Shown here one piece after another: positions 22 through 19,405 of a stretch of DNA of 20,000 bases. The DNA comes from Chiloscyllium plagiosum (Eukaryota). The DNA is taken from positions 18,931,011-18,951,010 of the forward strand of contig NC_057719.1 in the NCBI RefSeq assembly GCF_004010195.1, written 5' to 3'. How positions within the stretch are numbered: position 1 is the first letter of the stretch; each line of letters begins with the position of its first letter. The position numbers were made by a program, and so were the translations under genes. Under the pieces are notes generated by a model. The model was given only the letters and a program-made list of their open reading frames with translations. It searched no databases and was not told where the DNA came from.

Positions 22-640
22 ATTCGCTACTCACAGTGTGGTCTCCTCTACAGTGGGGAAATGAAGTGTAGACTGGGTGACGGCTTCGCAAAAAATAGCA
101 TGAGCTTCCAGTTGCCTGCCACTTTAACACACCACACTGTTCCTGAGCCAACATCTCTGTCTCAGGCTTACTGCAGTATTCTAATGAAGCTCAGTACAAG
201 CTGGAAGAACAATACCACTTGGGAACCCTGCAGCCCTCTGGACTTAATATCAAGTTCAATAATTTTAGGCCCTGAACTCTCCCATATCCAAGCCCCCTAC
301 CCCACACACCAGGCCTTATTATCACATAGGCTGTCATTACACCTAACCTATTGTTAGCCACGAACAGTCTCCATTAACAGCTATTCACCTGCCTAGCCAG
401 ATCGTTATCTATTCCTTTGCATGTTCATCCGATCTTCTCTCTTGTTTACTCCTTACCCCCTCCCCCCAACCTATCTTTTGTATCTTAACCAACATTTTCC
501 AGCTACCATCAGTTCTGAGGAAGGGTCACCGGACCTGAAACATTATCTCTGATTTCTCTCCACAAATGCTGCCAGACCTGCTGAGCTTTTCCACCAACTG
601 CTGTTTTTGTTTCTGATTTACAGCATCCGCGATTTTATTT
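22..640 (+). mobile_element. Penelope-like retroelement (PLE) 3' remnant: decayed GIY-YIG endonuclease C-terminus plus 3' region carrying a hammerhead motif
   Basis: From 22 the frame reads IRYSQCGLLYSGEMKCRLGDGFAK (cf. PLE I-x-C-x2-C-x3-YIGET-x-R-x-L-x2-RF-x-EH). After a frameshift it reads ELPVACHFNTPHCS*...KLEEQYHLGTLQPSGLNIKFNNFRP* (stop 273-275), matching the PLE C-terminal LGTLxPxGLN motif. The tail at 508-636 resembles the short cassettes elsewhere in the window. Confidence 0.85.
508..553 (+). ncRNA. Minimal type-I hammerhead ribozyme motif (decayed) in the PLE 3' region
   Basis: ATCAGTT-CTGAGGA(515-521)-A-GGGTC-accg-GACCT-GAAA(537-540)-CATT-ATCTCTGAT. Stem II pairs. ATCAG (508-512) pairs with CTGAT (549-553) as stem I. 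CATT is plausibly CpG-decayed CGTT. Confidence 0.7.
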
Positions 641-1370
641 AGGTTGAAGGGTGTGTTGCTTAAAAAGGAGGCAATTGGGGTCTCAATATTAGGGTTCTTT
701 GTATAATTGCACAATAAAGAATGGGTGAAATTAACCCTCTTGATAATTTTAGTTAAAAATGAGAAAAAGAATAAGAAACCATTTTATACTTGGCAGTTTC
801 CTCTTGTTAAAATTATGTATAGGAGCTTTCCAATTGCAAAGAATTGTGGCTATTATTAGCATTGTTTTGTTTTAATCTGTCAGTTTTCCCATCTTATTTG
901 TTTGGCTTAAATGAATTACAGAGTTTGCCTGCAAGGGAGTTGAACTGTTATCAATACAGATACAATCATAAAACTGTGAACGATTCAGCAGCAAGTGTAT
1001 GTTAATTCAACCCCCTCACATTAGTAATCCTTTTCAAACTGCTATCCTCCCAAAGATGACATCAGGTTTCCATGTGTAAAGTTAAAAAAAACGGAAACCA
1101 AGATCAATAAACAAAAATAAATATCAATTGCAATTCCTAGTTATTTCACTTTGCAAAGGACCCTTCTGACAGAGATTTTAGTTATTTAGTCTATTAATGT
1201 GCTTCAATCAGATTCATAGCAAAAAAAGCCTCTGAAAAGTTTTGCTTCTGCAAGAATCTTGTTGACTCCAGTTTCTAACAGTTCATATTAAACACATGGT
1301 AACCAGTCAACATGAGAAAAAAACAGACAGAAGCCACAATGCTATCCCGATAAATTTAATCGTATCCATC

Positions 1371-1630
1371 TTGGTTCAGTGGTAGCTCTCTGGCCTCTGT
1401 GTTGGGAATAAAAAGTGACATGTTCTATAATGGGTGTGTGATCTGTGGTTTACTGCCTCCTAAGCAACGAAAATGAAAATTACTCTTATAATCTGGTCAC
1501 TTATCTTATCACTGCTTATGGGACTTTGTGCTGTGCAGATTAGCTGTTGCATATCTCCCAGCACTTCAAAAGCACATGATTTGCCTGAAAAATGATTTTA
1601 AGCTGCTCTGTGAAAGCAAGCTCTTCCTTT
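1371..1630 (+). mobile_element. Ancient DeuSINE-like (SacSINE1/AmnSINE1-type) SINE relic, internally deleted
   Basis: tRNA-like head TTGGTTCAGTGGTAGCTCTCTGGCCTCTG (1371-1399). 3' part ATCTGGTCACTTATC...GGGACTTTGTGCTGTGCAGATTAGCTG...CACTTCAAAAG...GCAAGCTCTTCCTTT resembles the DeuSINE 3' region as recalled. Confidence 0.6.
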
Positions 1631-1696
1631 AGGCTCTCTTCAGCCTTTAACTTTGCAGAGAATCAAATGCTGATGCGATATGTACACAGCTGAATG

Positions 1697-1835
1697 TAAA
1701 GTAAAGTCACCATAGTTTTACAAGACCATAGGGCTGCTCTCTTATTCGGGAGAGATGTCTGGCTGCTGGTTTAACCAAAAGCTAAACCCAAGGGAGAGAT
1801 TGAGAATGAGAGTCCTTCATGGTAACTTCAACTAG
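1697..1835 (-). mobile_element. Fragment of a chondrichthyan tRNA-derived SINE (3' half)
   Basis: TAAAGTAAAGTCACCATAG...GACCATAGGGCTGCTCTC...GTCCTTCATGGTAAC resembles a common shark SINE in reverse orientation with a (CTTTA)n-type tail. Recognised from memory only. Confidence 0.5.
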
Positions 1836-2925
1836 TTGGACGTCTGAATATATCTGTAAGGGTGAAAACTTGAATATGTCTGTAAAGCAGAAAGGCTATT
1901 GCAAAGAAAAAGGAACGCATTACCAATGTATTGTATTGAACAGTTCACAGAATAGTATCTGAATGTACATAAAGTCAACCGAGCGTGCTAGATTTCAGGA
2001 AGATCGATAGCCTAATATTTTTAAAGTTGGACCCTATCTAGTTTTCCATCATTACATATTGAGGACTATGTGCTGCAGCCTTATACCATATCTCCCATGT
2101 TTACTTTCAGCTGAAATCCTTTTTGAAGAGTAAAAGATTAATCTTGCAAGGGCTTTGTGTAACAGCACCACCACCTTTAGGCCAAAGACTGGCTCAACTT
2201 CACATGCCAGTAAAGGAAATTAATTTCATATTTGAAGGTGACAACATAAGCCTTTGCTAATACCCACTCGACCCACAACAGAAACTCACTAGTATTCATA
2301 GCTCCTAATTTAAAAACCATTAGGCTGTTCTGCTTGGTGAACCGGATCTAAATATTCTTTAAGGGGTGTTTTAATTTAATCAGAGTCTTAACAAGCCCCC
2401 TTTTAAAAATGATGATCCGCAGAATTCAGGGGATTTGTTTTTTTTTGGAATCTGATCCAATAACAGGCTTTGCACCAAGACACCACAGTCGCATCTGATT
2501 TAGCATCGAACGGGCGATAATCAGGAAAATTGCTTTGCATATTTAATCACTGTGAAAACACAAGCAAAACCACTTTCTAGAGATTACTTTTTAATGTGCT
2601 ATGCCACTGGCATGCCAATGACCCTGACTTCAGCTGAAACACTGGGCAGGGAGCACAGCTCCAAATGAATTCAGTCAATGTGCTATTCAGTCCAGTTTAG
2701 TCTCCAGTATCCTGCTGTATCTCTATTAGACAGTAATGGAAAATTAAAATTGTTCTTTTTTTTCCCAAAACAAGGCTGATAGAAGCAGTTTTTCTTTTTA
2801 AAAAAGGGTCCAGCAGAACCAAATGTTTTCTGTTAACACTATCTTGCTCATGACTCTTAAAAGAGTAGATTCTCAACTTGTAACCCTAGAATGAGTCAGT
2901 AGAAGTAGGTTTCTAATATAGACAG

Positions 2926-3057
2926 GGTAAAAACAAGGACTGCAGATGCTGGAAACCAGAGTCTAGATTACAGTGGTGCTGGAAAAGCACAGCAGGTCAG
3001 GCAGCATCCAAGGAACAGGAAAATCGACGTTTCGGGCAAAAGCCCTTCATCAAGAAT
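2926..3057 (-). mobile_element. Short non-autonomous PLE-type cassette with hammerhead motif; 14-bp TSD
   Basis: Minus strand reads ATTC-TTGATGA-A-GGGC-TTTT-GCCC-GAAA-CGTC (core 3053-3026), then GATTTTCCTG...GATGCTGCCTGACCTGCTGTGCTTTTCCAGC...CAGCATCTGCAGTCC. The direct repeat TCTAATATAGACAG lies at 2912-2925 and 3065-3078. Confidence 0.85.
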
Positions 3058-4301
3058 AGGGCTGTCTAATATAGACAGCCAATTGCAACCCCAATTTCAG
3101 TTCTGGACGTCAAATTGAGAATCTACCCATGAAATCTTAACTAACGCTTTCTGCCACAATGTCAAATTTATTTTTCTTTGAAGCAATCTATTGACAGCAT
3201 TATGTTCAGCATTTAACATTATCCAGTAAGGAAGTGATGGATATAAGGAGTATGAGTCATCATTTTTGGAAATAGACTTCGAAGTGTGCATTCAGGGGGT
3301 ATGAACACATCAAACATTTAATGTTATAAACAGACGTTTTAGTTTCCAGAATTTCATGAGGGTTACTATTAGCTTTAAGAGAGTACCTCAGCTCTGACAT
3401 AATCACAACTCACGTCCCACATGTTATTCTGATTATTAGTTTGTTCTGATCACGGTTGACTATGAGCATTTATCATGACCTGGAGTCGGAGCCACTGGGA
3501 GCCAAACTGTGCAATGTCTGCTGCATTTTGCATAGGACACCTTGAGAATTTCACACAAGGGAAGGGGGTCTTTCATTCCCCCGACTCAATAGCAATTGAA
3601 CTCAGAACCATGTTGTAAGAACAGAGTACAGATTCACTGCACACCAAGATTACTCTGCCTGGAGTACTAAAAGAAGTGTAAAAAAAAGTTTAAATTGAAT
3701 GAATCATCTGTGAGATGCCGATTATGACAGTAGATTATTCTTTGTGCATGCTATTTCTTGCTGAATTACTTAGACTAAATAGCCGACGGGTAGTTCTTAT
3801 TTCACACGATGGTTGCATTCTTGTGCGATAACCCACTACATAAAAATTGCCTAATAAAAATAACACTTGAAATGTTAGTGATGCAATTGCCTTAGAGCCA
3901 ACACACGTTTTTGAAAGTTTGAGCTTTAGAACCAGCATCCTCTATTCGTCAATCGAGTTACAGTTAATTCACATTGATGAAAGGCACGTTATAGCAGAAT
4001 GACCTGTACTATGTACACATTGTAGGAAAGTATGGAATGATGTACTGTCAGGAGATTGTCAGTTTCATATCACAATGTGATACAAAAGGTCTTGGAAGGG
4101 TGTTTCACTAGTTCTCTTGCATGCCTCACCCTGCCACCCCACAATTTCACACCAAAGGGACTAAAAGGGGTGAGAATGCACCATGGCACCTTCATGCACG
4201 AATTCAATTTTCTGGTATAAACAACATGTCAACCACAGGCCAGGGGCCATTACACGGGCAAGTAAGAGTTGCTCTTTACTGGTGCAGGAAAGAATGCACT
4301 G

Positions 4302-4453
4302 CAATGTTCCCTCTAAGCTAGAAGGCCAAGTGGTTTGGATGGTCTGTGCATGCTGATTGGGATGTGGACATATTGACTTCTGATTCAGATAGACGCTGTC
4401 GCGAATGAACCTCAGAGCTCAACAAAGCGACAGGAAAAGTTAAGGGAACACAG
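4302..4453. mobile_element. hAT-like MITE (152 bp)
   Basis: Imperfect TIRs CAATGTTCCCTCTAA (4302-4316) and TTAAGGGAACACAG (4440-4453). The flanking 8-mers ATGCACTG (4294-4301) and AGGCACAG (4454-4461) match at 6/8, consistent with an aged 8-bp hAT TSD. Confidence 0.6.
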
Positions 4454-5469
4454 AGGCACAGACTTGGGGTTGGGAAGGGTCAAGTTACTTGTCTACATTG
4501 TTTTTGCCTTCGTCACACCTACTGCTTATGCTGAGTGAAGATGAAATATAAAATGTGGCCTCTTTAAAAACCCATCAAAAGAATGAATTTCATTCAAGTT
4601 GGATTTTTGATTTGTGATGCTTATAATGGCAAATGCAAGTTGAATCAACCATTCATTACACTCCCATTTGGTGCTATAAATGGGGTATTAGATTAGCTCG
4701 AGGTGCTAACATAGCAACTGCTACCATAGCGACTGTATCTCAGTACAATCAGTGAAGGAGATGAACATTCAAGACTGCTGTGAATTTTATAACAAAGATA
4801 TTCTGGAGAGTTTTGAAAAAAAAAGTGTGTTTTCATTAAAAAAAGCATAAGCTCCTCAACAAGAACTTCTTTCTTGTGAATCATACATTCTTGATGCTAC
4901 ACTCCATACATTCTTTGTGAAGAAATAATATTGAACTGAAGACTACAACATGGTCTTTTTTTTTAACAAAACAATTAACTTAGCTTATCAAATCTAAATA
5001 AATGCTCAATTGATACCCTGGAATTCTTCACTCAGTTACTTCAAGGACTTTGAGGTTTGCTATATGACATATTTGTGGTTGATTGAAGAACATCAATTAA
5101 GTTATGAAAGGCCCAAGATAATGTGAATTGCACATGTTCAGCTGGAAAGAGTAAGCTTAAGGGTCTCAATGGCCTTTTCTCGTTTTTCATAAATTCAGAG
5201 CTCTGAAACAATAAATTCTAAACTACTTCCCATTCCTCCTATTGTATTGAATTACTATTGCAAGTATGGTCTGTATGCCAATTACTTATTTCATAACACC
5301 AAAGCATTAAATAGGTCTCCCATATAGTCCAGCATAATGACGGGTATATTGTTAAATGTCAATTTGATTTTTATTATGATTAAATGAAATTCAAAATTAT
5401 AATAACTAATTTAGTGAATAAATAGCGATAATGATCAATAGACTTGTGTCTGACTTAGTGAGTGAGATA

Positions 5470-5820
5470 TAGGTTCACGGTCAACAGTAATACTCAAAGC
5501 ATGCTCTAAACAGCTATCCTAGTGCAGTCCGGTTGGGATGCTCCTTTGCTGAAGGCTTGAACCTTCAGATGAGACATCAAACCGAGGTCTTGTCTTATCT
5601 CTCCATCCCAATTATTGATATCAGTTTAAATACACCATGTTGCTGCTCAACGTTCAGGAAATTGCCCTGTGTCCCAGTGTCTGGGACATTTCTTACACAA
5701 CCAAATGTATAAAAAAATCAGATTGGGGGAAAGAAAATCAGATCATTATTATTTGTTAGATATTACTGGCACAAATTAGTTGCCATTGCAACTCTACGCA
5801 ATATAGTACATACAATTTCA
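5470..5820 (+). mobile_element. Ancient DeuSINE-like SINE relic containing the Deu domain
   Basis: GTGCAGTCCGGTTGGGATGCTCC...CTTCAGATGAGACATCAAACCGAGGTCTTGTCT...GCACAAATTAGTTGCC resembles the Deu-domain consensus (TTTCGGATGAGACGTTAAACCGAGG) as recalled. Confidence 0.6.
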
Positions 5821-7239
5821 CTTTCAATCCATCCCATTTGATGTTTTGAATTCCCCAGGTTTTACTGCTGTGAACACAAGGTATGAAATTGAAGGATATA
5901 AGCTTTCCAATATAGGCAAGTGCAACTCCTTTCCCATCACAAATTCTAGGATATCAACATAGCTCATTTTTGTCATTTGATATCGCCTTATACATTACTG
6001 CATGTACAGTGTTACAGCAATACAGAGTTGTCCTTTACAGAACAAGAATACTGCCTTTTCAAATCAAAGCAAGCAGATTATATTTAACAAATCCACATTA
6101 GGCAAATCACCTCTTTCATGTGATCTGAGATCATTTGAAGCATTTTTTTTTTGTCTCCTTTCCTTTATGTGTTTTAATCATCTCAAGGAACACAACTGCA
6201 GGGTGACCTCCGAACTCAGAGAAATGGAATTTGAAAGGAGAAGGCGCCCCACCTCTTCGAACAAGCACACCAGTTATTAACTAAAGAGCACTCGGGCTAA
6301 CACACAAATTGTAGGTTCCTTTCTAAGGGCTGCATGCATAATTTATCTGGATAGAGATCTTAACAACTCCTAAAGAAGTCTCCTAGGCATTCCAGTACTT
6401 AACCAGAAAAGGCTGTGTTTTTTTAAAATGCTGATATTCTATTTCAAGGAACAGAGGGCTATTTCGTATCAAACGATTCTTGCAGAGGTGTGGTTTGCAA
6501 ACTTCCATGGCTGTTTAAGACAGTCGTCAATGCGGATGTTAATTGCAAACCATCTTTCAGAATAAAACCTCCAAGCATGTCTGTGTAAACAAAATACCAG
6601 CTGCATAGCCCGGACATAGCTTGCGCTAATTTTAAGAGCAAATGTTCAATTCTTAGTTAACCACAGCTCCTTTATTTTCAATACCAACCAATTGGACGAC
6701 TTAAAATGCTTTCTGCATTGTTACATACTGTAGCAGAAAACAGCAATTGTGAAATAAAGAACAGAAAAGACAACACAACTAAAAAAAAGCAAACCATAAG
6801 TGCAAACAGACATTGAAATTCACACATTATTGTCGGAATTTACATAAGAGTAATTTCCGGATGGTGTTAGCACGACTTTAAATGAAAGTGAAATTTAAAG
6901 GAAAGGTTTTGTGTTTACTATATCTAAATTAGAAACAATTGGGGACAAACCTAGTTTCATGCCTAGTGCTGGACGGTCTTATATCTAGATATGTGCTGCT
7001 ATTTTCAATTAGCTAAAGGGATTCTGTAGGCTGTATGTGACTGGGTAGGTGGAATCACAATATCACAAAGCACGCAGAAGATCATTAAAAGGTATATGGT
7101 TTAAACCAAATACCGTGGGAAAGGGGTGATAAAATGAATGAATTATTGATGAAGAATGAGACTTTTTACTTGACATGACCAGATACTGATGCATTCAAAA
7201 TTTGAGATATTGCACTTTCTTCGTACAGTGTGGATGCTT

Positions 7240-7690
7240 AGAAACAGACTTTTTGACCAACCAGTGCCGACCGGTGTTTATGACCCACTCATTGCTCCTC
7301 CTGCCTGACACTATCAGCATAACCCTTTATTCCCTTCTCCCTCATACACTTACCTAGCATGCCTTGAATGTATGTTTTCCACTTACCTCATCAACTGTTT
7401 ATGATCATGAGTTAAATATTCTCACCATTCACGAGATACAGAAGTTTCTTCTGAATTCCTTATTTGATTTCCCGGTGATAACTGACACTCTGTGTCTAAT
7501 CAATCATAAGCTTTCATAATTTTAAAACCATCTATTAGGTATTCTCAGCCTTTTTTTTTGCACAAGATAGCAGTCCTATCCTATTCATCTTTTTCTGACA
7601 AGATAAAATGTTGCATCCTTGTATCATACCTGTAGATATTTCTTGCACGCTTTCCTGTGTCTCTGGATCCCTTTATAATTTGGTAGCCAT
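7240..7690 (-). mobile_element. Old CR1-type LINE 3' fragment
   Basis: The minus strand of ~7505-7555 gives KRLR../LID/FKIMK, like CR1 RRLRGDLIEVFKIMK. The 7240-7330 segment looks like a reversed LINE 3' UTR. Heavily decayed. Confidence 0.55.
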
Positions 7691-7692
7691 TC

Positions 7693-7746
7693 AAATATTT
7701 TCTCTACAACAGTCAGAGAAAATATCAGAGAAATATTTTCTCTGAC
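7693..7746. repeat. Micro direct plus inverted duplication
   Basis: AAATATTTTCTCT occurs at 7693-7705 and 7731-7743. A perfect 14-bp inverted repeat GTCAGAGAAAATAT (7712-7725) / ATATTTTCTCTGAC (7733-7746) overlaps the second copy. Confidence 0.85.
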
Positions 7747-9104
7747 ACAGCTACAGTATTGTTACGTTACAGGGGAGTTTCAAAACACGTGGAGACTGCT
7801 GGCATTGCTCAATCTACAATAGCAGCCATTTTAAGATCCTTTAGCATACAGTAGTCCCGTAAGGGAAACAGCTGACTTGCATTGTATTAGAGTGTCTTCA
7901 AGGTCTTAATGGAATATGTCAACATATGTGGAAGTATTTAAGTACATTATTTCTCCCCTGCCTCAGGATTTCATAGTGCCAATGTTTATTCAACAGATTG
8001 AGCTAATACTTTGTTAGAGAATACATCAATGCATAATGATAATGAGGTTGTGTAAATAGCTTGCAAGAGGAAGGCTGGTGAAGCAGTACTTAATGCTTCA
8101 GTACAATCACATAAGGCAGCCTGCAACATAAAAGTTGGCCCTTCAACTGAAGTGATGATATTGATGCTTGCAATTCTCTGTGATTTAATGTGCAGTCACC
8201 AAAAGTTCACAGTTATACCATTTTCTGTGAATGAAAAACATACAGATCAGATACTGCTCTGGTAACTGCTCCATAAGAGTGATTTGAATTATCCAGTACA
8301 ACAATAAACAAAGCTCATTCCAAACATTACTTTACCTCGGCAACAACTTGGAACTGTAATGATGCAACAAAAGTTAATTAGATGTTACAGCTTTTGAGTA
8401 CCAAATGTTCTTTGCAGCTTTTTAAAAAAAAGTTTTTTTTATTAAATAACATTTTACAAAATTGAGTTTTAGGATCTTGGGATCATGAACACATAATCCA
8501 CATGCAATAATGTTATGGTTATTCATTTTTAAATGAAGATAAAGTTACGCTTATTTGAAATTTGACCATACTCTAACAGGATTATTTAAAATGCAATTAC
8601 AAAATGAAACATGTTCAGTAATAAATTGAGGCTGTGACCAAGCACCTTTAAGTTGTTTCTATACAATAATGCAATTAAGTAATTGTGTTATATGTTAAAA
8701 TGTGTCATTATTCATTACAGAATTAAATAGCTTTTCTAAAATTAGTCAGATAAAGTGACAGAGAAACTCTTGCAATTTTCCTTTGCTTTGTTTTCTTCAT
8801 TATATGGCAATGGCACATTTTAGATAGTGCTGCAAGAAAATCTGACAGCATTTACCTATTATATTAGATATTTGTATTGAAATTTCAGAGTTCCACCCAC
8901 AATGCCATGATAATTATAAACCAAAAGCAAAAGGTATCAGGAATAAGAAACAGCACCATGTTAGGTTTCTTCTTATCCTGTCGTTAATAGCAGCATAATT
9001 TTGATAATATGAAGTTAGACTTTTCTTGTGTAAAATAAAGATTTGCTCGACATTGGCCATTTGTAGAATCGGTTCTCCATTTCAAGCAGCAGCAAGACTT
9101 AATA

Positions 9105-9248
9105 AATCAATCGATTTTGGGACACAAGGGAATCAAAGGATGTGGAAAAAGGACAGAAAAGTGAGATTGATGTAAAAGTTCAGTCACAATTGTGCTGGAT
9201 GGCTCGAGATGTTGAGCAGCCTACTCTTCTTCCTAGTCTTTATATTCT
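9105..9248 (+). mobile_element. Old CR1-type LINE 3' end/UTR fragment
   Basis: AAGGGAATCAAAGGATGTGG...GGCTCGAG...GCCTACTCTTCTTCCTAGTCTTTATATTCT resembles the fish/shark CR1 3' terminus (GGCCTACTCCTGCTCCTA...TATGTTCT). Confidence 0.55.
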
Positions 9249-9289
9249 GGACTTGTTGCCTTGCCAAAAAGTGCAGCAGCTTTTAAAAT

Positions 9290-9690
9290 CAGCTTCTCAC
9301 ACAAAAGTTTTGAATGAAGGAGGCAAGGTACAGAGATCATTTTCTGTGTAAGAACCCCGAAGTACTTCCTGATGTCTATCTCTAATCTTTCCATTCTAAA
9401 ACTGGACACACGTATCTTGTTTTCTTCACCACTCATCATTCTGTATTCTAATTAGTATCGTACACTGGTTTTATAAAATATCTCCTCCTCGGTGCCTTTT
9501 TCAAGCTGGAGGGCCCCAGTTCCTTCAATAATGCTGTCCTGACTTTTCTTCCTGTTATCACCTTTAGTGTCTGGCTAGCATCTGACTGCATGTCAGCAAC
9601 CAGAACTGCAGAAGTGTATCCTCAACAAATCAATATATAACATTGACATAAGATCTGGACATTTAAATTCAAGGGAGTCAAGCATAAAGC
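9290..9690 (-). mobile_element. Very old CR1-type ORF2 C-terminal fragment
   Basis: Minus-strand peptides RLEIDIRKYF..TQKMI (ORF 9233..9439; cf. RLDIRKYFFTQRVI), QFW near 9600 and EFKCPDLMSMLY near 9635-9670 (cf. EYKSxDVMLxLY) occur in the expected order. Confidence 0.5.
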
Positions 9691-9923
9691 AGCAAACTGG
9701 TTATTGTGTTTGCTGACACCTCATATTATTTGAACATTGCGCCTGATGAGTGGATTAATAACTCTCTCTTCCAGCTTTTTCCTTGGAAAGTTCTATCCCA
9801 CCCATGGATTACTCATGCCTTCTATTTTTGTAATATCAGATTAATCTATTTGTATGTCATCTGCTGAGGAGGTTTTCAGTATGGTTACTAGAAGGTTAAG
9901 TTTTGTAGCTTTTCTCTTTCTTT

Positions 9924-10143
9924 AGATCAGAGCTGAAAACGTGTTGCTGGAAAAGCGCAGCAGGTCAGGCAGCATCCAAGGAGCAGGGGAATCGACGTTT
10001 CGGGCATGAGCCCTTCTTCCTGAAGAAGAGCTCATGCCTGAAACGTCGATTCTCCTGCTCCTTGGATGCTGCCTGACCTGCTGTGCTTTTCCAGCAACAC
10101 ATTTTTAGCTCTGATCTCCAGCATCTGCAGTCCTCACTTTCTC
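9924..10143. mobile_element. Head-to-head inverted PLE-type hammerhead cassette; 13-bp TSD
   Basis: Arms 9924-10019 and 10022-10117 are reverse complements (96 nt, 6 mismatches by my count, all transitions) around a 2-nt CT spacer. The + copy continues to 10143. CTCTTTCTTTAGA is duplicated at 9914-9926 and 10144-10156. Confidence 0.9.
10020..10047 (+). ncRNA. Minimal hammerhead ribozyme core
   Basis: CTGAAGA-A-GAGC-TCAT-GCCT-GAAA-CGTC. All core residues are present, stem II is weakened by two transitions, stem III is the palindrome ACGT, and the predicted cleavage is after GTC (10047). Confidence 0.7.
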
Positions 10144-10304
10144 CTCTTTCTTTAGAATAAATGAGTTTAGGAGTAGATCTGATAGTGCTTTCATAATTAT
10201 GAGGATAAGATAAATGAAGAAAAATTATTTCCGTTCTCCAGACTTGTAAACTGGAAAACATAAATTTATGACCACACAAAGCAGAAAGAAGTCTCCATGC
10301 TAAA

Positions 10305-11436
10305 ACTTTTGGAATACTGTGTTTAATTCTGGTCTTCCTGCTATAGGAAGGATATTGCGAAACTTTAAAGGGTACAGGAAAGATTTACAAGGATGTTGCC
10401 AGGGTTAGAAAGTTGGAACTATAGGGAGACGCTGAATAGGCTGGGGCTATTTTCTCCCACAGCACCAGAGATAAACCTTTATAAAGGTTTAAAAAATCAT
10501 AAGGTACATGGATAAGGCGAATAGTCGAGGTCTTTTCTCTAGGATCGAGGAGTCCAAAACTAGACGGCATAGGTTAAGGTGTGAGGGTAAAGATTTAAAA
10601 GCGACCTAAGGGGCAACATTTTCACACAGAGGATGCTGCATGTATGGAATGAACTGCCAGAGGAAGTGGTGGAAGTGCTATAGACCAGGCCAGGCCACAT
10701 GCCCTCAAAACAGTTTAAGAAGGTAGCTCAGAATCTGACTTTTCTAGTTGCTTTAAGCAGATGTAAGATGAATATTCCAGGAGTAAGGCAGCTGGTCAAA
10801 CCACTTGGTTTTAAACAAAACAGAATTTATTTGCACAAGAGCAAAAGAAAACTGAATTTAGAATAACAGAACTAATTGAAAACCCAACTGACATGATTTC
10901 TTCCAACATCCCATAAACACACCCCTTGGCAAAAAGGTAAATTCAAACACAGTTTCTTACAGCAGAGAGATGTCAGAGAGAGAGAGGATCAGCATGGAGC
11001 TGTTTCTTTGGGTCACCAGCTTAAACCAATCCAAAACTAGAAAAAACCCTGAACTGGGAGAACTGGCCACTCCCCTTTCATAGTGCAAATTAAAAAAAAA
11101 CTGAAAGCCTTTTCTGATTGTGGACGAGGCAACATCTGTTAGCTATTATTAAAGTACCCACTTCAGAAATTTCGGCACTTCTGCCTTGATGACCCCTCTC
11201 GAAGAAGAAAGAACAGAATTACCGTTTTAAAGAAGCAGTATCATCACAGAGGCTGGGACAATTACAACATTTAAAAGACATCTGGATACATACATGAATA
11301 GGAAGTGTTTAGAAGGATAGGGACCAAATGCTGGCAAATGGGACTAGATTAAGTTAGGACATCTGATCGGCATGATGGGTTAGACCAAGGGTTCTGTTTC
11401 CGTGCTGTTCATCTCTACGACTCTATGACTCTAAGA
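10305..11436 (+). mobile_element. CR1-clade (HER-like) LINE 3' end, split by an LTR insertion (pieces 10305-10675 and 11249-11436)
   Basis: Peptides LLEYCV*FW..YRKDI, RFTRMLPGL and WNELPEEVVE|AGTITTFKRHLD join across the insertion. The element ends in the CR1-type microsatellite tail CTCTACGACTCTATGACTCTAAGA. Confidence 0.9.
10676..11248 (-). mobile_element. Solo LTR (573 bp; Gypsy/ERV-type)
   Basis: TG...CA termini (minus strand TGTGA...TAGCA), a 4-bp TSD GAAG (10672-10675) / GAGG (11249-11252), and AATAAA on the minus strand at 10831-10826. It interrupts CR1 coding sequence cleanly. Confidence 0.8.
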
Positions 11437-11440
11437 TGTC

Positions 11441-12222
11441 TTCGGTAGTGGGCAAGTTGTTGGAGGGAATCCTGAGGGACTGGATGTACATGTATTTGGA
11501 AAGACCAGGACTGATTAGGGATAGTCAACATGGCTTTGTGCATGGGAAATCATGTCTCACCAACTTGATTGAGTTTTTTGAAGAGGTAACAAAGAGGATT
11601 GATGAGGGCAGAGTGGTAGATGTGATCTATATGGACTTCAGTAAGGTGTTCGACAAGGTTACCCATGGGAGACTGATTAACAAGGTTAGATATCATGGAA
11701 TACAGGGAGAACTAGCCATTTGGATACAGAACTGGCTCAAAGGTAGAAGACAGAGGGTGGTGGTGGAGGGTTGTTTTTCAGACTGGAGGCCTGTGACCAG
11801 TGGAGTGCCACAAGGATCGGTGCTGGGTCCTCTACTTTTTTGTCATTTACATAAATGATTTGGATGCGAGCATAAGAGGTACAGTTAGTAAGTTTGCAGG
11901 TGATACCAAAATTGGAGGTGTAGTGGACAGCGAAGAGGGTTACCTAAGATTACAACAGGATCTTGACCAGATGGGTCAATGGGCAGAGAAGTGGCAGATG
12001 AAGTTTAATTCAGATAAATGCGAGGTGCTGCATTTTGGGAAATCAAATCTTAGGACTTAAACACTTAATGGGAGTGTTGCTGAACAAAGAGACCTTGGAG
12101 TGCAGGTTCATAGCTCCTTGAAAGTGGAGTCGCAGGTAGATAGAATAGTGAAGAAGGCGTTTGGTATGCTTTCCTTTATTGGTCAGAGTATTGAGTACAG
12201 GAGTTGGGAGGTCATGTTGTGA
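11441..12222 (+). pseudogene. CR1-clade LINE ORF2 reverse-transcriptase fragment (truncated at both ends, frameshifted)
   Basis: ORFs 11436..11858 and 11800..12060 contain QHGF, YMDFSKVFDKV, GVPQGSVLGPLLF, YINDL and KFAGDTK (FADD decayed). There is a frameshift at the T-run ~11836-11841 and a stop at 12058-12060. Homology continues with ERDLGV...EYRSWEVML*L to ~12222. Confidence 0.95.
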
Positions 12223-12368
12223 CTCTGGAAAAGTGATGAGATTTAAAAAGGATGGTTTCTGACCAGAATCATCAGATTTATTAATCCATGGCAGACTCAA
12301 TGATCTATCAGTTAAGTGTGAATGACTCCAGAGCACTGTTAATGACTGACCAACTTCATCAGTTTATT

Positions 12369-12495
12369 GGTTCTAATAAAGAATCACTACTCTTGAAGCA
12401 TTAACTCTGTTTTCTTCCCAAAGGTGTTGCCAGACTTGCTGAGTTTCTCCAGCAATTTCTGTTTTCATTTCAGATCTCCATAATCTGCAATTTCC
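12369..12495 (+). mobile_element. Old, strongly decayed PLE-type hammerhead cassette
   Basis: GGTT-CTAATAAAGAATCACTACTCTT-GAAGCATTAACTCTG...GTTGCCAGACTTGCTGAGTTTCTCCAGCAATTTCTGTTTTCATTTCAGATCTCCA..ATCTGCA aligns by eye with 511-630. The ribozyme core is destroyed. Confidence 0.65.
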
Positions 12496-13279
12496 AATAA
12501 TTGTTTTCTTTTATCATTTCTTTATGCTGGAAGGTGTGTTGTTTCAGGTAGGTATACAGCATAACCCCAGAACATGTTTGGAGTCACTATGCTTCATCTC
12601 ATTCCAATTTGTGAACAGATCTCTGGAAGGAGAAAGTGTGAATTCCTGATCAAACAACCAGAAATGCAGCCTGTGCGGAATTCAGAACATCTTGATCCAG
12701 AGACTCCTCCAGATTTGTTTTGTTTAAACTGAACCAAATGAAATGTGAATGAAAACTTGCCTTCTCCATGAATGTGTGCATATTACATTACAATATCAAT
12801 GCAATCCTTCTTCTCCAAATGTAGAAAAATTGGAAAAGTAAAGCATCATCTGAAATGTAAACTGGAAGTTCGTAGCAACTTGTGCTCTTTTTATTACATG
12901 CATTTTAAATGTAAAATATTAACACCAAGAGTAAATTTCTGTCAGTTGCTAAAGTCTGAAGTACTAGAATAACATTATTGCAACATTGTGCTTGTAATTA
13001 TAACCAGCATATGCAACTTGAAAACATTCATTTTAATGATTATATAGAAATCAGACTGCAGTGAAGCAATTTACATTCTGTTCACCTGCAGACATTGGAC
13101 ATGTTTTGTGGAGGGATTTTTGCAACAAGGCTTTTCAGGTTTTCTCTCCATATCTTACCAAAGTTGCCTCAATATCTACCTGCCTAATGCCTCATGTCCA
13201 CTTCAGAATTTACCAGCCTCTGTTGTACCCTCACCACCTTTAAGTGGTCTCTGAGCCCTTGCTGGCACTTGACCTATAC

Positions 13280-13800
13280 ATGGCAGACAAATGGAAATTG
13301 ATGCCCATTTCGTGGGCAGTGTCTTGAAAGCCCAACTGGATGGGCGAATGCAGATATAAGAGTTCCTCTTTGCCAAGAGCCACCAGTGGAGGCCACAGCA
13401 CCAGACAATGTCAGTCTGTTCTGGGTTTGCCACACAAGCAGCCTCAGTAATGTAAGAAAAGGATCAATGTCCTTACCTACTGCCCCAATGTAAGTGTCAC
13501 TGTTTTCACTGCAATATGTTACACTCACTCTATCTCTGCTCCTGTACCGCCTCCCCACCAAGGCTCAGGCTCTACCACTCCCTGTATTACCTGCAACCTC
13601 GACCCTCACTCACTGTCACCCACACCAATCTTGAAACCATTGACATTGCATGCCCTCTGTGTCACTTGGTCACTCATTCAGGAGAATTCCCTACCTACAC
13701 AAAAGTTAATAGCTATGCCACACACACATTCAATTCTCATAATACCTGCCTCTTTCCCGCACCAGGAGAAAACAGCCCATAGTAGGGCAGAAAGACTTCG
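13280..13800 (+). pseudogene. Decayed PIF/Harbinger Myb/SANT-like DNA-binding gene with a phase-0 intron (13490-13765)
   Basis: From ATG 13280, with frameshifts: MADKWKL..HFVGSVLKAQLDG..*EFLF..HQWRPQHQT....CKKRINVL..N | GTAAGT...CTCAT...TCTTTCCCGCACCAG | EKTAHSRAER. This resembles Harbinger MSANT proteins (RF...L..L.D.V..R..LF...W..VA...QCRKR.NDL...EK.AHNR.ER). Confidence 0.65.
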
Positions 13801-14575
13801 CTCCCTCCCCGCTCTCCCCCCCCCCCCCGATTCACTGAGATCAAGGCAAGCTTCCTGTCTTTGTGTCTGCACTAAAGAGCAACGTAATGTGAGCAGGGTA
13901 TCTCTGGGTGAAGGGAGAAAGCACAAGCAAAGCAAGGCAACATGAGACAGGGACAGTCTGGACATTCAGGTAGGCACTGGGTGCATGAGTGCTATGAAAG
14001 TGATTGAGGAGCCCAGAAATGCAGCCTAGTCCAGTCCAGGTGTTGTGTCCTTGCAGCCGTACTACAATGATAGTTGTCAGTGAAACCCGAAATGTAGCAT
14101 TCAGGGGCAGAATTGTTCTGTAAGTGGATCACAGAAATACCACAAGGGATCTTAGAGGCTGGATGTGGAGTGTCTGCAGCTAGTGCCCAAGGAGTGGACA
14201 CTGAGATGTTGGTGCCTAGTGTCCAACATAGAGGCCACTTCGGCAAGCAGTGAGTTGAATTCACCAGATATCTGCTCTAATTTCCAATTCAAGGTTTACT
14301 GATGTCTAGCTTACTCAAGGAAGGTAGAAATATGAATATTAATAAGGTGGGTTTGGCTATCAAAAAGCATTAAACAAGTAATAATTCCCCTTATTGTTGC
14401 CTATTCCTAACTTGCCGTGCCATTTGCGAAAAGCAAATAAGATGTAGTGATATGCATTTGATGTAGAGATGGGTACTGCTAGAATTCTCAACTAATTCTG
14501 CTCTAACTCCCATCATGACCCATATCACTCAGATCCCTGTGCCCAGTGTCAGGCATTCAAGAACTTTTAAATATT

Positions 14576-14888
14576 ATAGAAACCCTACAGTGTAGAAGCA
14601 GGCCATTTGGTCCATCAAATCCATGCCAAACAAAGAACACCCTACCACAGTCACCTCCATCTTTGTATCCATACATTTCCCCATGTACGCTAATCCACCT
14701 ACCCCAGACATCCCTGAACACTATAGGGCAATTAACATGGCCAGTCCAACTAACCTGCACATCTTTGTGGAAGGAAACCGGAGCATCTAGAGGAAACCCA
14801 CATAGACACATGGAGAATGTACAAACTCCACACAGTCAGTTGCCAAGGCTGGAATCAAACCCAGGTCCCTGGCGCTGTGAGAGCAGTG
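14576..14888 (-). mobile_element. HE1-like V-SINE (tRNA-derived, elasmobranch), 5' clipped
   Basis: Minus strand shows a B-box GGTTTGATTCC (14861-14851), the V-domain GTGTGGAGTTTGTACATTCTCCATGTGTCTATGTGGGTTTCCTCTAGATGCTCCGGTTTCCTTCCACA, and a LINE-derived tail GGACCAAATGGCCTGCTTCTACACTGTAGGGTTTCTAT. Confidence 0.85.
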
Positions 14889-15149
14889 GTCTCTCTCTTT
14901 CCACAGCAGATGTTTGTACATTTCAATGACTTGTACCATTTCTTGACTACTTCTGTTTATGTTCCCACATGTCTCACTGCCCACAGAAGTATTGGACCTT
15001 GATTGTTGTGTTTTTACTTTCCTCTTTATTCCATGCATCTGTTGCTGAATCCATATCTCACCGGCAACCAATCATTATGTGTCTCTTCCGGATGTTGCCA
15101 GAGTTCCTGCCTTACAATGCTTGGAGATATTTCCAGCCTTATTATGTGA

Positions 15150-15325
15150 TTATGCATCTCCACATCTGTACCCAAGTAGTTTTCGGACAAATCAGTAGTT
15201 TTTATGGTCATTGTTAACGAGGTATGCAATTGCAGATTTATTAATGAACTGAATTTAAATTCTCCAAGCTGCCTTGGCTGAGTTCAAAGCTTAAGTGCCA
15301 GTAACATAACCATTATGTAACCATT
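15150..15325 (-). mobile_element. Old tRNA-derived SINE relic
   Basis: TTTTATGGTCATTGTTA...CAGATTTATTAATGAACTGAATTTAAATTCTCCAAGCTGCC...CCAGTAACATAACCATTATG resembles a reversed shark SINE 5' half. Recalled similarity only. Confidence 0.45.
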
Positions 15326-15428
15326 CTTTGGTGCAAGCTTTCCTATGGAAATTCATAATGAAGATTTAAGTGCTTGAAATGATATTTTACACACGTGGTC
15401 ACCTTCACAAAAAGCAACATTCCTCATA

Positions 15429-15546
15429 TGCAGATACTGCAGATGTCATTCTTGATGAAGGGCTTTTGCCCAAAACGTCGATTTTCCTGCTCCTCAGATG
15501 CTGCCTGACCTGCTGTGCTTTACTAGCACCACTCTAATCATGACTC
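15429..15546 (+). mobile_element. Short PLE-type hammerhead cassette, 3' clipped, with inverted tail fragments at the 5' junction; 9-bp TSD
   Basis: ATTC-TTGATGA(15452-15458)-A-GGGC-TTTT-GCCC-AAAA-CGTC (G12 lost, probably by CpG decay), same subfamily as 2926-3057. TTCCTCATA occurs at 15420-15428 and 15547-15555. Confidence 0.8.
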
Positions 15547-17309
15547 TTCCTCATACAGTGCCCAGGCTTGCTTATGTGCCTGGGGAAGCCTGGAAATCTG
15601 AAACAGATCCTTTTCCTTTTTATAGCGCCTACAAATTCAGTGTCAGGGAGAGCACTGTAAGGCCAACAGCGTCATTTTTGAAGGTGCCCCACACAACAAA
15701 AAAGCCAGCTTTTATCTTCTTCTTATAAGGTTAGGATCAATTGTTCTGTAAAGCTAATCACCAGTATCTAGTTATAAGCTGTGTTTTCCTGACGTTTGAG
15801 AAAAAAAATTGTAAATAAAGTAACCGCAGTATAATAGCCGCAGCATTCCAAAATTCTCATAATGTTTTCAGTGTCTGTAATAATCTCACCCACAAATGTA
15901 CATTAGGTCAATCATCATTGGGAGGCAATCCAAACTCGACACAAGAAAACACACATGCATGTTAATGCTATTTGGAGGCACAGAGCCGTGAGAAATCAAT
16001 GAGTGCATATGGTGATTTACCACGGATTTAAGCTGGTTGCAAACAGCATTGATATCATTGATTTTTTTTTCAGGATCCTTGCTTTTGTTTTGTCAAAAAT
16101 ACACAGTGATAGCTTTAACTCTTTAAATCTCCACCAACTATAGTCCAAGTCCAGTGTGGCTGAATTGTCACATTGCACTGGAAGCTCATTTTTCTTCAAT
16201 TCTACTTGAAGTCTGTGATGAAACTTGAACAATTCAATCCCCTTTCTGGATTTATCCTATGTCTTGCTTTTCTCAGGTATCTCTCACTTTTTCTAAACCC
16301 TGTTCCCTAACCCTTCCCTGGTGAGCAGCACTCTTTCCTGGCCAACATTTTTGTCCAATGTGACATAATCTTGTCAACAAGAAACCTTTCATGTTTGACA
16401 ATTTATTTATTTTTAACATTTTAACATCACACCCGACCCAAGCACACATTTCTCGTGTTGAAAATCGCCTCTGTATTTCCACAAGAACAAAAAGAAACGC
16501 AGTTTGGCCGTCTGAGAACTATTGCGAATTGCAACATGAGATTGTGTCAGTCAATTATGGGCTGGCACTCATAAATCACTACTGTGAGCTACCGAGTGTC
16601 CAGAATCAATAGGCAGCTAAAATGGAACATTTTGCATATTCACTCACCTGAAGCTGTGAAAAAAAAATCTATTTGCCAATTACTTTGGTTGAATATGAGT
16701 TCAGTACATATTCAACTGTATGTGACCATCTAGAAAATTGAGTTGTTAGATCATTTTCATGCCAATTTCGTTCCTCCTTACTCTGAACTTTTCCCAAGTG
16801 TGTGCCCATGGTTCTGCAAAGGACAAAAAGGCAAAAGATAAGCAACACTAAGCAGCCATTTAATATTAATAAACAGCTTTGTTCTATTTTTATTATATCG
16901 AATGTAGCTTTAGATATCATTATCAATATTTGCACCATACCAGAATCTCTAGATGTTTTAACTGCCTAATTATTTAATTTCTAGGCAGAGCATCTACACT
17001 GTAATTTTTTAAATATTTTGTTACAATTGTGTCTGCACAATCTATTTGCAGCTCTGGTCTTTTTTTCTTTTGCAGTATAAATGCTAAGGCCTTTGTAATT
17101 TCGTTTGTAGTTGCACAAATGAATTGCTGTTCAGATGAGCAGAGATGCAATAATGAAAATCTTCAATCAAATACAATGGATGGAATCACATAGGAATCTG
17201 AGCGATGGGAAGTCTGACGAGGGGCCCATCTCAATGTTGGGAGTATCTTACACCAATGTGAATGCTTCTCACAAGTAGCATGGCACATTTCTCTCTCTCG
17301 TTATTTTTA

Positions 17310-17456
17310 GTTATCCATTGCTGACTGGGTCAGCATTAATTGCCCATGCCTGGTTGCCCTTGAGTAAGTGTTGGTGAATTGCCTTCTTGAACCGCTGCAG
17401 TCCATGCTCCACAATGCGCTCAGGGAGGGAATTCCAGGATTCTGACCCAGAAGCGA
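17310..17456 (-). mobile_element. CR1/L2-type LINE ORF2 C-terminus and 3' end fragment
   Basis: The minus strand translates to SGSESWNSLPERIVEHGLQRFKKAIHQHLLKGN, the WNSLP...FK terminal motif of CR1/L2 ORF2. Confidence 0.75.
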
Positions 17457-17769
17457 TTTGCGAATTAAGGGTGATTACTGCTTGTGAAACATCTTGTTTA
17501 CTGCATGACCCACCTCATTAATATTGAGTTTCCTATCTTGTCAAACACGCCAAATATGGTTGTTGTTGAAAGAACTTGATATGGAAACCAGAGTGGGTAC
17601 CTGGTGATTCGTTCGGTGCTTATTCTGGCAACCTCCATGCTGAGTTTGATCAAACAGCACTGCACAGAATGATCCACAGGCACAAGCCATAGGTACCCAG
17701 CATGCATGAACATTGGCATCAGATGCTTGCTACCTCATAATGATACATCTCTCTAATACATTTACAGAC

Positions 17770-18420
17770 ACTTATGAATGACAGGCATCTTGCAGGGTGC
17801 ATTGACAACTGGTATTGGAAGGTTGCAGCAGGACATTCCTCTCCTGGTACCCTGTGAAAGGTACTGCTGCACTATATTTCCACGCCACAGGCTTTTCCCC
17901 AGGAGCCACAGGTGTGCCAATGATGAATGCCATCTGTGCAAGGCCACACCAGTTCAGTTTTCTTCCCCCATGGCGAGGGCATGCCCTCAGGTGTAGTATG
18001 CCATTGGCTGCACACACGTGGCACTGAGAGCTCCATGCCACAACACTGTGGAAATTCATCAACAGGAAGGAGTTCCATTGCAGGTGATCCGCCGTCGGTG
18101 CTATCACTTCATGGGTAGTAGCATCTCACTACCCTGGTAGATACCACAACTTCTACATCCTGGGAGCACTCTCACATATCTGCTATGTTTGAGGGCCTGT
18201 GCCTGCAGCAAGGGTGGCTACTGGGGCAAATGCTGCCCACTGTGACCATAGCTCTCTTCAGCAATGCACAGCCCCCTGACTGATGCAGAATGAAAATAAC
18301 AATGTTATCCATGGTTTTGAAGGGTGGAGGGAAGAACGGGTGTAGTCTTCCAACGGTGAGGAGGAAAACAAGGATATGGGGAAGAGGACCTTGGCCATTG
18401 TGGAGCACAGCTATATTGAG
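17770..18420 (+). pseudogene. Decayed PIF/Harbinger (HARBI1-like) DDE transposase
   Basis: Ordered motifs across frameshifts: PVKGTAALYFHATGFSPGATG (17851), CPQV*YAIGCTHVALRAP (cf. FPxVxGAIDCTHV), KFINRKEFH (18052; cf. FxNRKGFHS), YPGRYHNFYIL (18130; cf. PGSxHDSxIL), GWLLG (18212; cf. WLLGDxGYP) and PLTDAE*K (cf. PxTxAExxYN). The catalytic Asp residues are mutated. Confidence 0.85.
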
Positions 18421-18446
18421 TGCTACAAACCAGAGAGGACTTCATT

Positions 18447-18551
18447 GACACAAAAGCAGAGAATGCTGGAAAACCTCAGCAGGACTGGTAGTATTCTGTG
18501 GCAAGAGAAACATAGTTAATATTTCAAGCCCAGAATGACTCATCTTCAGAC
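18447..18551 (-). mobile_element. Old PLE-type hammerhead cassette
   Basis: Minus strand reads CTGAAGA-T-GAGTC-ATTCTG-GGCTT-GAAA-TATT-AACTATG (core 18549-18518), followed by CCACAGAATACTACCAGTCCTGCTGAGGTTTTCCAGCATTCTCTGCTTTTGT, homologous to 555-612. Confidence 0.7.
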
Positions 18552-18649
18552 ATTATTCTATCCTGGCAGTTCTGGTGGAGCGGTGGCAAGTGTGGTAAGG
18601 GTTAATTTCAAATGAGGCATCCAAGATGGCGTTAGGTGATTATTTGATC

Positions 18650-18785: not shown

Positions 18786-18999
18786 ATTCCTAAATCTGCA
18801 GTGTGATAGATCCTCGTGGCAAGGTTGGTGACTAAAGGACAACAATTGACAAGAAAACAAATGGGAGACAAAGAAAAAGAAAAGAATTGGCATGTTCATT
18901 CAAGGCCATGGGCTGAAACAACCAGCATTATGCTTTAGATAACTTTAGATATAGCCTGTTAAAATACCTACTTTAGAACGACCTATCTCACAGTCAACA

Positions 19000-19405
19000 G
19001 GAAGACATCACAGGCAGAGTGCAGGACATCCTCAAGGACGAAGGTGAAGAGCCAGAGGTGGTGGTACATGTCAGCACAAATGATGTCGGGAAGAAGAGGA
19101 GGAACATACTACAGCGGGACTTTGGAGAACTAGGAAGAAGGCTGAAAAGCAGGACGTCCATGGTGGTTATCTCCGGTTTGCTTCCAGTTCCTCGGGCTGG
19201 TGAGGCCAGAAACAGGGAGATAATGGACTTGAATGTGTGGCTGGGGAACTGGTGCAGGAAGCAAGGATTTAAATTCTTGGATCACTGGGGTATGTTTTGT
19301 GGTAAGCTTAAATTATATAAGAGAGACGGTTTGCACCTTAATAGGTTAGGGACCAGCATTCTGGCAGGCAGGTTTGCTACTGTAACACAGCTACATTTAA
19401 ACTAA
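19000..19405 (+). CDS. CR1-clade LINE ORF1, SGNH/GDSL esterase-like domain (5' truncated)
   Basis: ORF 19019..19405 contains VVVHVSTNDV (block III GxND), VVISGLLP and YKRDGLHLN (block V DxxH), and ends HLN* (TAA 19403-19405). Confidence 0.9.

Follow-up and report, generated by a model that had tools for sequence, protein, structure and literature searches.

The repeat units in this 20,000-nt window of Chiloscyllium plagiosum DNA (the whole stretch that was analysed) are, as their sequences indicate, pseudo-LTR ends that carry hammerheads and belong to several Neptune-type Penelope-like families, and we consider it reasonably probable that most of the short copies among such units are run-off cDNAs covering the first 100-130 bases of an uncut, probably capped, element RNA. 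The window contains seven units from six insertions (Table 1), none of them in tandem. A genome sample of 100 stretches, 974,592 bases in all, gives 253 repeat matches and its reversed control none; the corresponding density of ~260 units per Mb, with ~2.5% of the sampled DNA made up of repeat units, extrapolates to roughly 0.9 million units and about 0.7 million insertions in the genome. An initial annotation of this DNA described six loci of a very high-copy mini-retroelement spanning several age classes. The places are correct, the repeat is clearly above chance, and both the high copy number and the range of ages are borne out, although the two-stranded locus at 9994-10047 is a single insertion, and the description as a mini-retroelement fails for copy 1, which extends upstream by way of a 3'UTR as far as a GIY-YIG remnant. 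Matches to miRNA-like Rfam families in the window were rejected, as they reflect merely the inverted pair at 9927-10143.

Table 1. Repeat units and associated element remnants in the window
Feature	Coordinates	Strand	Remarks
Copy 1, GIY-YIG remnant	22-296	+	Decayed, C-terminal, older Penelope-like family C; tblastn with P0002, E 1.3e-9, 39-48% identity
Copy 1, pseudo-LTR (3'UTR and putative part of promoter)	297-510	+	Common to other family C copies; decayed TATA-like site ~30 nt upstream of position 511
Copy 1, unit (hammerhead and tail)	511-630	+	Core 515-521, stem II 523-536, GAAA 537-540, predicted cut after 544; 15.2-16.2 pair gone
Copy 2, family B	2926-3057	-	Begins at +1 and has the long 3' end; U at C3; 14-nt target duplication 2912-2925 / 3065-3078, plus 7 filler bases
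Insertion 3, short arm, family A, inverted	9927-10024	-	Without CUGA; ends at short site; 13-nt target duplication of the whole insertion 9914-9926 / 10144-10156
Insertion 3, long arm, forward	10017-10143	+	Start at +2; mismatch in stem II
Copy 4, old family C	12372-12491	+	Decayed core
Copy 5, family B	15429-15546	+	19-nt inverted tail piece 15429-15447, then unit that begins at +1 (15448) and has the short end; U at C3, A at G12; 9-nt duplication 15420-15428 / 15547-15555
Copy 6, old family C group	~18450-18553	-	Recognisable in core and stem II, decayed in stems I and III

The identity of the parent elements is indicated by the reading frames that adjoin the units. Units directly follow ORFs with matches to PF00078 and PF01541, and also directly precede an ORF start. 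Two ORFs, of 893 and 749 aa, stop ~150 nt upstream of a unit; PF00078 scores above the cut-off in both, and PF01541 just under it (21.2-21.5 against 22.6). On translation there is a CCHH zinc-finger motif with two Cys within the GIY-YIG core, a motif that belongs to the definition of EN+ Penelope-like elements (Craig et al. 2021, PMC8557442), and the linker between reverse transcriptase and endonuclease in P0001 and P0002 reads C-X4-C-X2-C, which is the Neptune CX2-5CxxC pattern, described also in Nematis. Sequence comparison of the ORF with solved structures returned no match. The pseudo-LTR arrangement, with a unit ahead of the ORF start and again past its end, is observed in separate copies, and no contiguous full-length element was seen as a single copy. 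In this layout +1 is the first base of stem I, the hammerhead occupies +5 to +32, and 3' end sites lie at ~+95 and ~+130; an ATG near +170 opens the ORF (reverse transcriptase, Cys linker and GIY-YIG), which is followed by a 3'UTR of ~150 nt and then the unit again. The short copies end upstream of the ORF start.

The majority sequences of the families have the features of the minimal hammerhead (min-HHR), namely the core, an extra base after A9, G10.1-C11.1, a palindromic 15.2-16.2 pair and stems I and II, in agreement with the initial assignment to minimal type I hammerheads of the Penelope type, in which the palindromic stem III is ACGT. The individual copies are more worn. GAAA-CGT(C/T) is exact in three of the seven window units (3057-, 10017+ and 10024-) and decayed in those at 511, 12372 and 18553, with the unit at 15448 carrying A at G12; units 3057 and 15448 carry U at C3 and retain G8. 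No window unit is fully intact: under a strict test of core and stems all seven fail, whereas 39 of the 255 sampled units pass, a proportion that extrapolates to ~140,000 intact hammerheads genome-wide. The Rfam search that had been recommended finds no hammerhead family in the window. Covariation, in contrast, is present: 85.1% of alignment cells are paired against 79.8% when shuffled, and there are 46 double changes in hammerhead pairs against 21 when shuffled and at most 12 when slid, figures that come from a few events in five families related to one another. Six rows of the alignment show a swap of C3-G8 for U3-A8. The stems thus covary across families much as the proposal of an ever-paired stem II implied, with the mismatched arm at 10017 as an exception. 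That mismatch was rejected as a subfamily marker, having been seen in query-selected matches whose partner arms do not carry it. In our reading the hammerhead is maintained by selection in the source elements and would probably cleave weakly as a dimer. The constrained fold of a 224-nt tandem double hammerhead lies 5.7 kcal/mol above the minimum, and cleavage of hammerhead dimers is attributed to Lunse et al. 2017 in a review (PMC6765202).

The 5' boundary of the copies, previously proposed to be fixed, is a strong and non-random hot spot but not a fixed end. Of the 91 young units in the sample, 45 have their start between -10 and +9 relative to the boundary and only four in the next 50 nt upstream, and 21 of 55 solo copies start within the same -10 to +9 interval. 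Exact patterns for one young family find 14,420 copies starting at +1/+2, 365 at the cleavage site and 319 at a control site, ratios that are rough because the patterns differ in acceptance rate and subfamily coverage; once pattern acceptance is corrected the +1 peak is ~10 times larger than the cleavage-site class. Since the cleavage site is 32 nt downstream of this boundary, ribozyme cleavage does not set it. Judged by sequence features, +1 is likely the capped transcription start of the element RNA, because a TATA-like box lies ~30 nt upstream (read by eye at ~-30 in five families with differing UTRs) and an extra G frequently precedes +1. G occupies -1 in 48 of 100 among the matches listed, with 26% expected (hand tally; p 2e-6), an extra G lies outside the target duplication in four of seven duplication-bounded solo copies, and three of the joints to +1 in public contigs, among the matches listed, carry G or TG. 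The extra base in family B is a purine in 49 of 100 among the matches listed (p 0.07, not significant), and a local census, with 13 of 39 non-C, is also not significant. The inverted arms that flank +1 are purine-rich, a property that may inflate the G count. RNA data add little: one single-cell run gives 638 reads that match the element, on both strands, 90% of them continuing into unlike sequence and with no pile of starts, and such reads are uninformative on the transcription start because they mirror genomic copies; in a second run no read matched the element.

The 3' ends of units are bimodal, falling at a long or a short site, and 41 of 96 solo copies end at the short one. Paired units in the genome sample are head-to-head in 58 cases and tail-to-tail in nine, and 33 of 35 sampled head-to-head pairs consist of one long and one short arm (p 1e-8). 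Target duplications of at least 8 nt bound 14 of 19 pairs, with none in controls, and just five of 29 solo copies, a scarcity that counts against a run-off origin. The two arms of a pair agree in subfamily at 802 of 878 diagnostic sites, or 91% against 54% when shuffled; the agreement is also expected under fold-back. Fold-back has been suggested for rotifer Penelopes (Arkhipova et al. 2013, PMC3846280), and with the element itself unchanged the pairs could arise by fold-back or self-priming of a single cDNA, or on an antisense template, +1 then being a point of snap-back or stalling favoured by palindromes and structure. We regard such an origin as rather unlikely. Besides the shared subfamily of the arms it can call on a palindromic overlap at three of the 12 junctions in which each arm extends to +1, but solo copies share the hot spot and commonly end at the short site, G precedes +1 on both arms at two junctions, and stalling should produce a peak at the 3' foot of stem I (~+36), where none is present.

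Under the run-off route that we favour, transcription would start at +1 from a putative TATA/Inr-like promoter in the upstream 3'UTR, and the element protein would nick the target with a stagger of 12-16 nt. Reverse transcription would begin inside the RNA at two sites, in the manner shown for the anole element. Initiation on the 5' leader would run off at +1, in many cases with one more base placed opposite the cap, and integration of this product would leave a short, dead copy; extension of both target strands, one per site, would give a head-to-head pair of one long and one short arm, and initiation on the 3' pseudo-LTR would give ordinary 5'-truncated copies such as copy 1. Hammerhead cleavage would not determine the ends of copies. 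In vitro, reverse transcription of the anole element begins at two internal sites and extends both target strands, and the hammerhead is dispensable; the anole protein uses the start sites without strand preference (Frangieh et al. 2024, PMC11167929). The genomic pairs are strictly asymmetric, unlike this in vitro behaviour, which counts against the run-off reading. We lean towards the broader view that several hundred thousand strong-stop-like insertions record a Penelope intermediate in vivo, in which capped uncut RNA from the first base of stem I, fixed long and short priming of the two target strands, run-off at the cap and head-to-head joining would be combined.

It is improbable that the short copies derive instead from dedicated SINE-like or retrozyme-like non-autonomous sources with RNA starting at +1. 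Internally deleted tandem derivatives with periods of 224, 236 and 320 nt do occur at many loci, one derivative junction is common to nine loci, and the fold of the 224-nt double hammerhead described above speaks for such a source; the derivatives keep the ORF start, however, and would feed the same run-off route. The short copies include neither the promoter region upstream nor the region of the ORF start, which the anole protein is described as needing on its template. The SINE-like non-autonomous module of the initial annotation is not supported as the source of the short copies, as these share subfamilies with the long, ORF-bearing copies (in a comparison of 63 short and 30 long units, a short copy has 92.2% identity to its nearest short and 92.1% to its nearest long neighbour) and there is no tRNA head, no tRNA or Rfam family having been found at gathering score in the window. 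A splice acceptor at the boundary, with spliced RNA as the template and an exon starting at stem I, is very improbable: Cervera and De la Pena 2014 (PMC4209133) do describe a Drosophila virilis intron whose end coincides with the 5' start of helix I, and families C, D and E show AG at +1/+2 behind a pyrimidine tract, but families A and B, the source of most copies, have AT at these positions, the A at +1 is retained in 66 of 100 among the matches listed, and the flanks listed share no common upstream exon. That hammerhead self-cleavage defines the 5' ends is scarcely credible, the slight excess at the cleavage site over the control site having to be set against ~45 point mutants per 100 among the matches listed for that comparison, against the many cleavage-site matches that are palindromic junctions of inverted arms, and against the size and upstream position of the main peak. 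A minor cleavage-derived class of copies is possible; a family A pattern for U-rich sequence joined at the cleavage site gave 12 matches, none common beyond point mutants.

The motif class and most of the structural features have already been published, so that the value of these repeats lies in a mechanistic clue rather than in a new system. To our knowledge only one Penelope-like protein has been reconstituted so far, and ~0.7 million insertions offer base-level statistics on the 5' terminus of the template, both start sites and the stagger at the target, from which one can directly predict the outcome of cap mapping and of in vitro assays; the +1 hot spot hints at the way in which Penelope-like elements insert. 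In the literature searched, mostly open-access and without Repbase or Dfam, we found no published shark case and no strong-stop or cap reading; the supplements of PMC4209133 and of Li et al. 2026 may list shark motifs.

Minimal hammerheads in the pseudo-LTRs of metazoan Penelope-like elements were described by Cervera and De la Pena 2014 (PMC4209133), and the shark units resemble them in being type I with no real helix III, a palindromic 15.2-16.2 pair and a short helix I, in the extra base between A9 and G10.1, G10.1-C11.1 and the U3-A8 core variant, and in occurring mainly as single dispersed copies, ascribed there to truncated elements. They differ in number, with ~4,000-9,000 per vertebrate genome there and ~0.9 million units here by a different method, and in that copy ends are mapped here and not in the available text of that paper, which does not name sharks. 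Animal non-LTR retrozymes (Li et al. 2026, bioRxiv 10.64898/2026.07.22.740005), reported in one chondrichthyan, are likewise hammerhead repeats derived from Penelope pseudo-LTRs and include dispersed monomers; they are defined by at least two tandem units with complete hammerheads, whereas the window copies are solo or head-to-head and only the 224-320 nt derivatives at other loci correspond. Penelope elements of Adineta vaga (PMC3846280), together with the general scheme of Craig et al. 2021 (PMC8557442), share the inverted 5' pseudo-LTR, a one-ended tail of 30-40 nt, short target duplications, and TATA and Inr-like pseudo-LTR motifs; the copies there are few and long, unlike the mainly 100-260 nt, ORF-less insertions at very high copy number here. 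An experimental parallel is the Poseidon element PAc of Anolis carolinensis (PMC11167929). Its ATG lies at stem II, while here it lies ~40 nt past the distal end site; the Cys linker and the asymmetric use of two sites in genomic pairs also set the shark elements apart, and neither a run-off 5' boundary nor an extra G is described for PAc in the accessible part of that paper. PAc nevertheless has a hammerhead at the junction of pseudo-LTR and ORF, two internal reverse-transcription start sites that match genomic 3' ends, extension of both target strands, and uncut RNA as its substrate, as proposed here.

The window carries seven units of one repeat, each a more or less decayed minimal hammerhead with a conserved tail (~100-130 nt); +1 denotes the A that opens hammerhead stem I. 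The six loci proposed in the initial annotation stand as six places, one of which holds two units in one insertion, and the motif by which they were recognized is present as a repeat, but in its exact form in only three of the seven units. A strict hammerhead test, which requires the core, at least 4 bp in stem II, at least 3 bp in stem I and a palindromic 15.2-16.2 pair, is passed by 39 of 255 sampled units but by none of the seven here, and an Rfam search of the window gave no hammerhead match. The repeat family is nonetheless real and Penelope-linked.

Features of the window
Feature	Position	Remarks
GIY-YIG remnant upstream of copy 1	22-296	E 1.3e-9
Copy 2 (family B)	3057	C3 to U; 14-nt target duplication
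Copy 3	9927-10143	single head-to-head insertion of two units; 13-nt target duplication on its flanks
LINE RT fragments and LINE 3' part	10304-10962, 11248-12232	PF00078 at 11376-11855
High-copy short repeat	14569-14890	~320 nt
Copy 5 (family B)	15448	C3 to U; 9-nt target duplication
LINE 5' part	18977-20000	GDSL/SGNH esterase-like frame (PF13472, below cut-off), then AP-endonuclease frame (PF03372)

The majority of family B has C at position 3; the change common to both window copies either marks a minor lineage or arose twice independently. The LINE fragments at the center of the window, which recur many times among sampled loci, are presumably CR1; the esterase-AP-endonuclease order at its right end we take to be typical of CR1/L2-type ORF1-ORF2, and the short repeat presumably resembles a shark SINE (HE1/V-SINE).

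Several of the 30 best genomic matches extend upstream through a common UTR into coding sequence. Two open frames (893 and 749 aa) encode an RT (PF00078), a C-X4-C-X2-C linker and a GIY-YIG domain (PF01541, slightly below cut-off) and terminate ~150 nt upstream of the unit; downstream, other copies run ~40 nt beyond the usual 3' end to an ATG and the ORF N-terminus. Since the unit adjoins both the end and the start of the ORF, its sequence context identifies it as the pseudo-LTR of an EN+ Penelope-like element, and the proposed Penelope attribution is borne out by these frames and by the GIY-YIG remnant before copy 1. The linker points to a probable Neptune or Nematis affiliation, of which it is a feature (PMC8557442). 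The ORF halves come from different copies overlapping in a Pro-rich linker, and no contiguous full-length element was seen in the loci examined, many with assembly gaps. Candidate matches fall from 80,546 in the RT thumb region to 9,807 at the RT start and 1,241 at the ORF start (first-look counts, not copy numbers), which fits heavy 5' truncation. The closest named relatives of the protein are in Chiloscyllium punctatum, Rhincodon typus and Mobula hypostoma. In the youngest family (L220 and related loci) a 42-codon upstream frame starts in the conserved tail from +50 onward and overlaps the main ATG; it may regulate translation.

A profile search of 100 evenly spaced 10-kb stretches (contigs C1-C21, 974,592 non-N bases) recovered 253 units, with none in the reversed control. 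The density in these stretches is ~260 per Mb, or 2.5% of bases, and the seven units in 20 kb of the window are near this average; for a genome of 3.56 Gb the total is roughly 0.9 million units, provided that small contigs resemble those sampled. The youngest subfamily is 2.4% divergent, and dozens of copies have open frames of 800-1000 aa; the family has therefore been active recently.

Clustering of 237 units gives five main families, A-E, with divergence within clusters from 2.4% to ~30%. At stem I pair 2.1-1.1, families A, B and E carry C-G where C and D carry U-A; at stem II pair 10.4-11.4, A and B have C-G and the other three families U-A; and in family D U3-A8 replaces C3-G8. The expected covariation is present: in 41 real copies picked by centrality or score, 85.1% of cells are paired versus 79.8% when shuffled, with 46 double changes versus 21 shuffled and at most 12 with partners slid; the 46 go back to a few events in related families and are not independent of one another. 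In the four family A/B copies and the family D copy the tail is predicted to fold into a closing stem with an inner hairpin; in families C and E this is less clear.

A fixed 5' boundary had also been proposed, and it is real with a sharp center, but spread over some 20 nt. When 91 young sampled units were each mapped against the nearest long reference, 45 started within -10 to +9 of the +1 A; upstream of that interval, four lay in the adjoining 50 nt and 19 beyond them, and the other 23 began deeper within the unit. Exact patterns found 14,420 family A copies genome-wide with a non-reference base at -1, compared with 365 starts at the predicted cleavage site, 32 nt downstream of +1; a control site 4 nt beyond the cleavage site gave 319 (~45 of its 100 listed being point mutants by hand count). 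After a rough correction for pattern acceptance, starts at +1 are about ten times those at the cleavage site. Because starts center on +1 and not on the cleavage site, the boundary is not produced by the ribozyme.

The +1 A lies in what we take to be an initiator-like context, and a TATA-like motif, read by eye, is present at ~-30 in five families with different UTRs; PMC3846280 describes TATA and Inr motifs in a pseudo-LTR. Among the first 100 family A places listed, all on C1 and counted by hand, 66 have A at +1 and 48 have G at -1 (26% expected, p 2e-6); within the 66, G occurs at -1 in 30/66 versus at -2 in 15/58 (p 0.02). The G is absent from the target copy in 4/7 duplication-bounded solo copies, an extra G is present in 4/12 full inverted junctions, and three contig joints to +1, among those listed, carry G or TG. 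Weighing against this are family B (G in 49 of 100 purines among matches listed, p 0.07), the local census (13/39 at -1) and RNA reads, in which no start pile was found. On balance we infer a capped transcription start at +1; PMC3287187 ascribes the untemplated G found at full-length L1 and SVA insertions to cap copying. Family B junctions with G before A have T at -2 in 19/31 of the matches listed, and in some of these the element's opening bases look duplicated over a short stretch. Among places listed, G at -1 with T replacing the +1 A recurs in 7/100 for family A and 13/100 for family B, which could arise if the first nucleotide beside the cap is modified and so misread.

The 3' ends fall at ~+90-105 or sharply at ~+130, and solo copies comprise 52 long, 41 short and three intermediate. 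In the profile sample 58 pairs are head to head and nine tail to tail. Of 35 sampled head-to-head pairs, 33 have one long and one short arm (p 1e-8), as do 47 of 51 at loci preselected for a long end, and arms agree in subfamily at 802/878 sites. Target duplications of at least 8 nt, mostly 12-16, flank 14/19 pairs versus 5/29 solos and no controls. The suggestion of a SINE-like non-autonomous module as the source of the short copies is not supported, in that short copies are equally close to long copies (nearest identity 0.921) and to each other (0.922; 63 short, 30 long). Both the promoter region upstream and the ORF-start region, the latter needed on the anole template (PMC11167929), are missing from short copies, which are therefore probably dead on arrival. 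Non-autonomous derivatives proper do occur, as tandems of 224, 236 and 320 nt in which the ORF start is retained; tandem loci L260-L289 and L298 are very young and internally deleted. The 320-nt forms differ in crossover points but not in length, which suggests template switching in register.

A published shark case, or a reading of such short copies as strong-stop (run-off) products, was not found in the literature covered, most subscription journals and repeat databases being outside its scope. The unit's predicted hammerhead agrees in all features with the min-HHR of PMC4209133, which includes the U3-A8 variant, and the tandems resemble the retrozymes of a 2026 preprint (bioRxiv 10.64898/2026.07.22.740005). 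The one-ended tail of Penelope-like elements (PMC8557442, PMC3846280) matches the long/short asymmetry seen here, and the two 3' ends agree with the two internal start sites shown for the anole protein, by which both strands are extended and for which the ribozyme is dispensable (PMC11167929).
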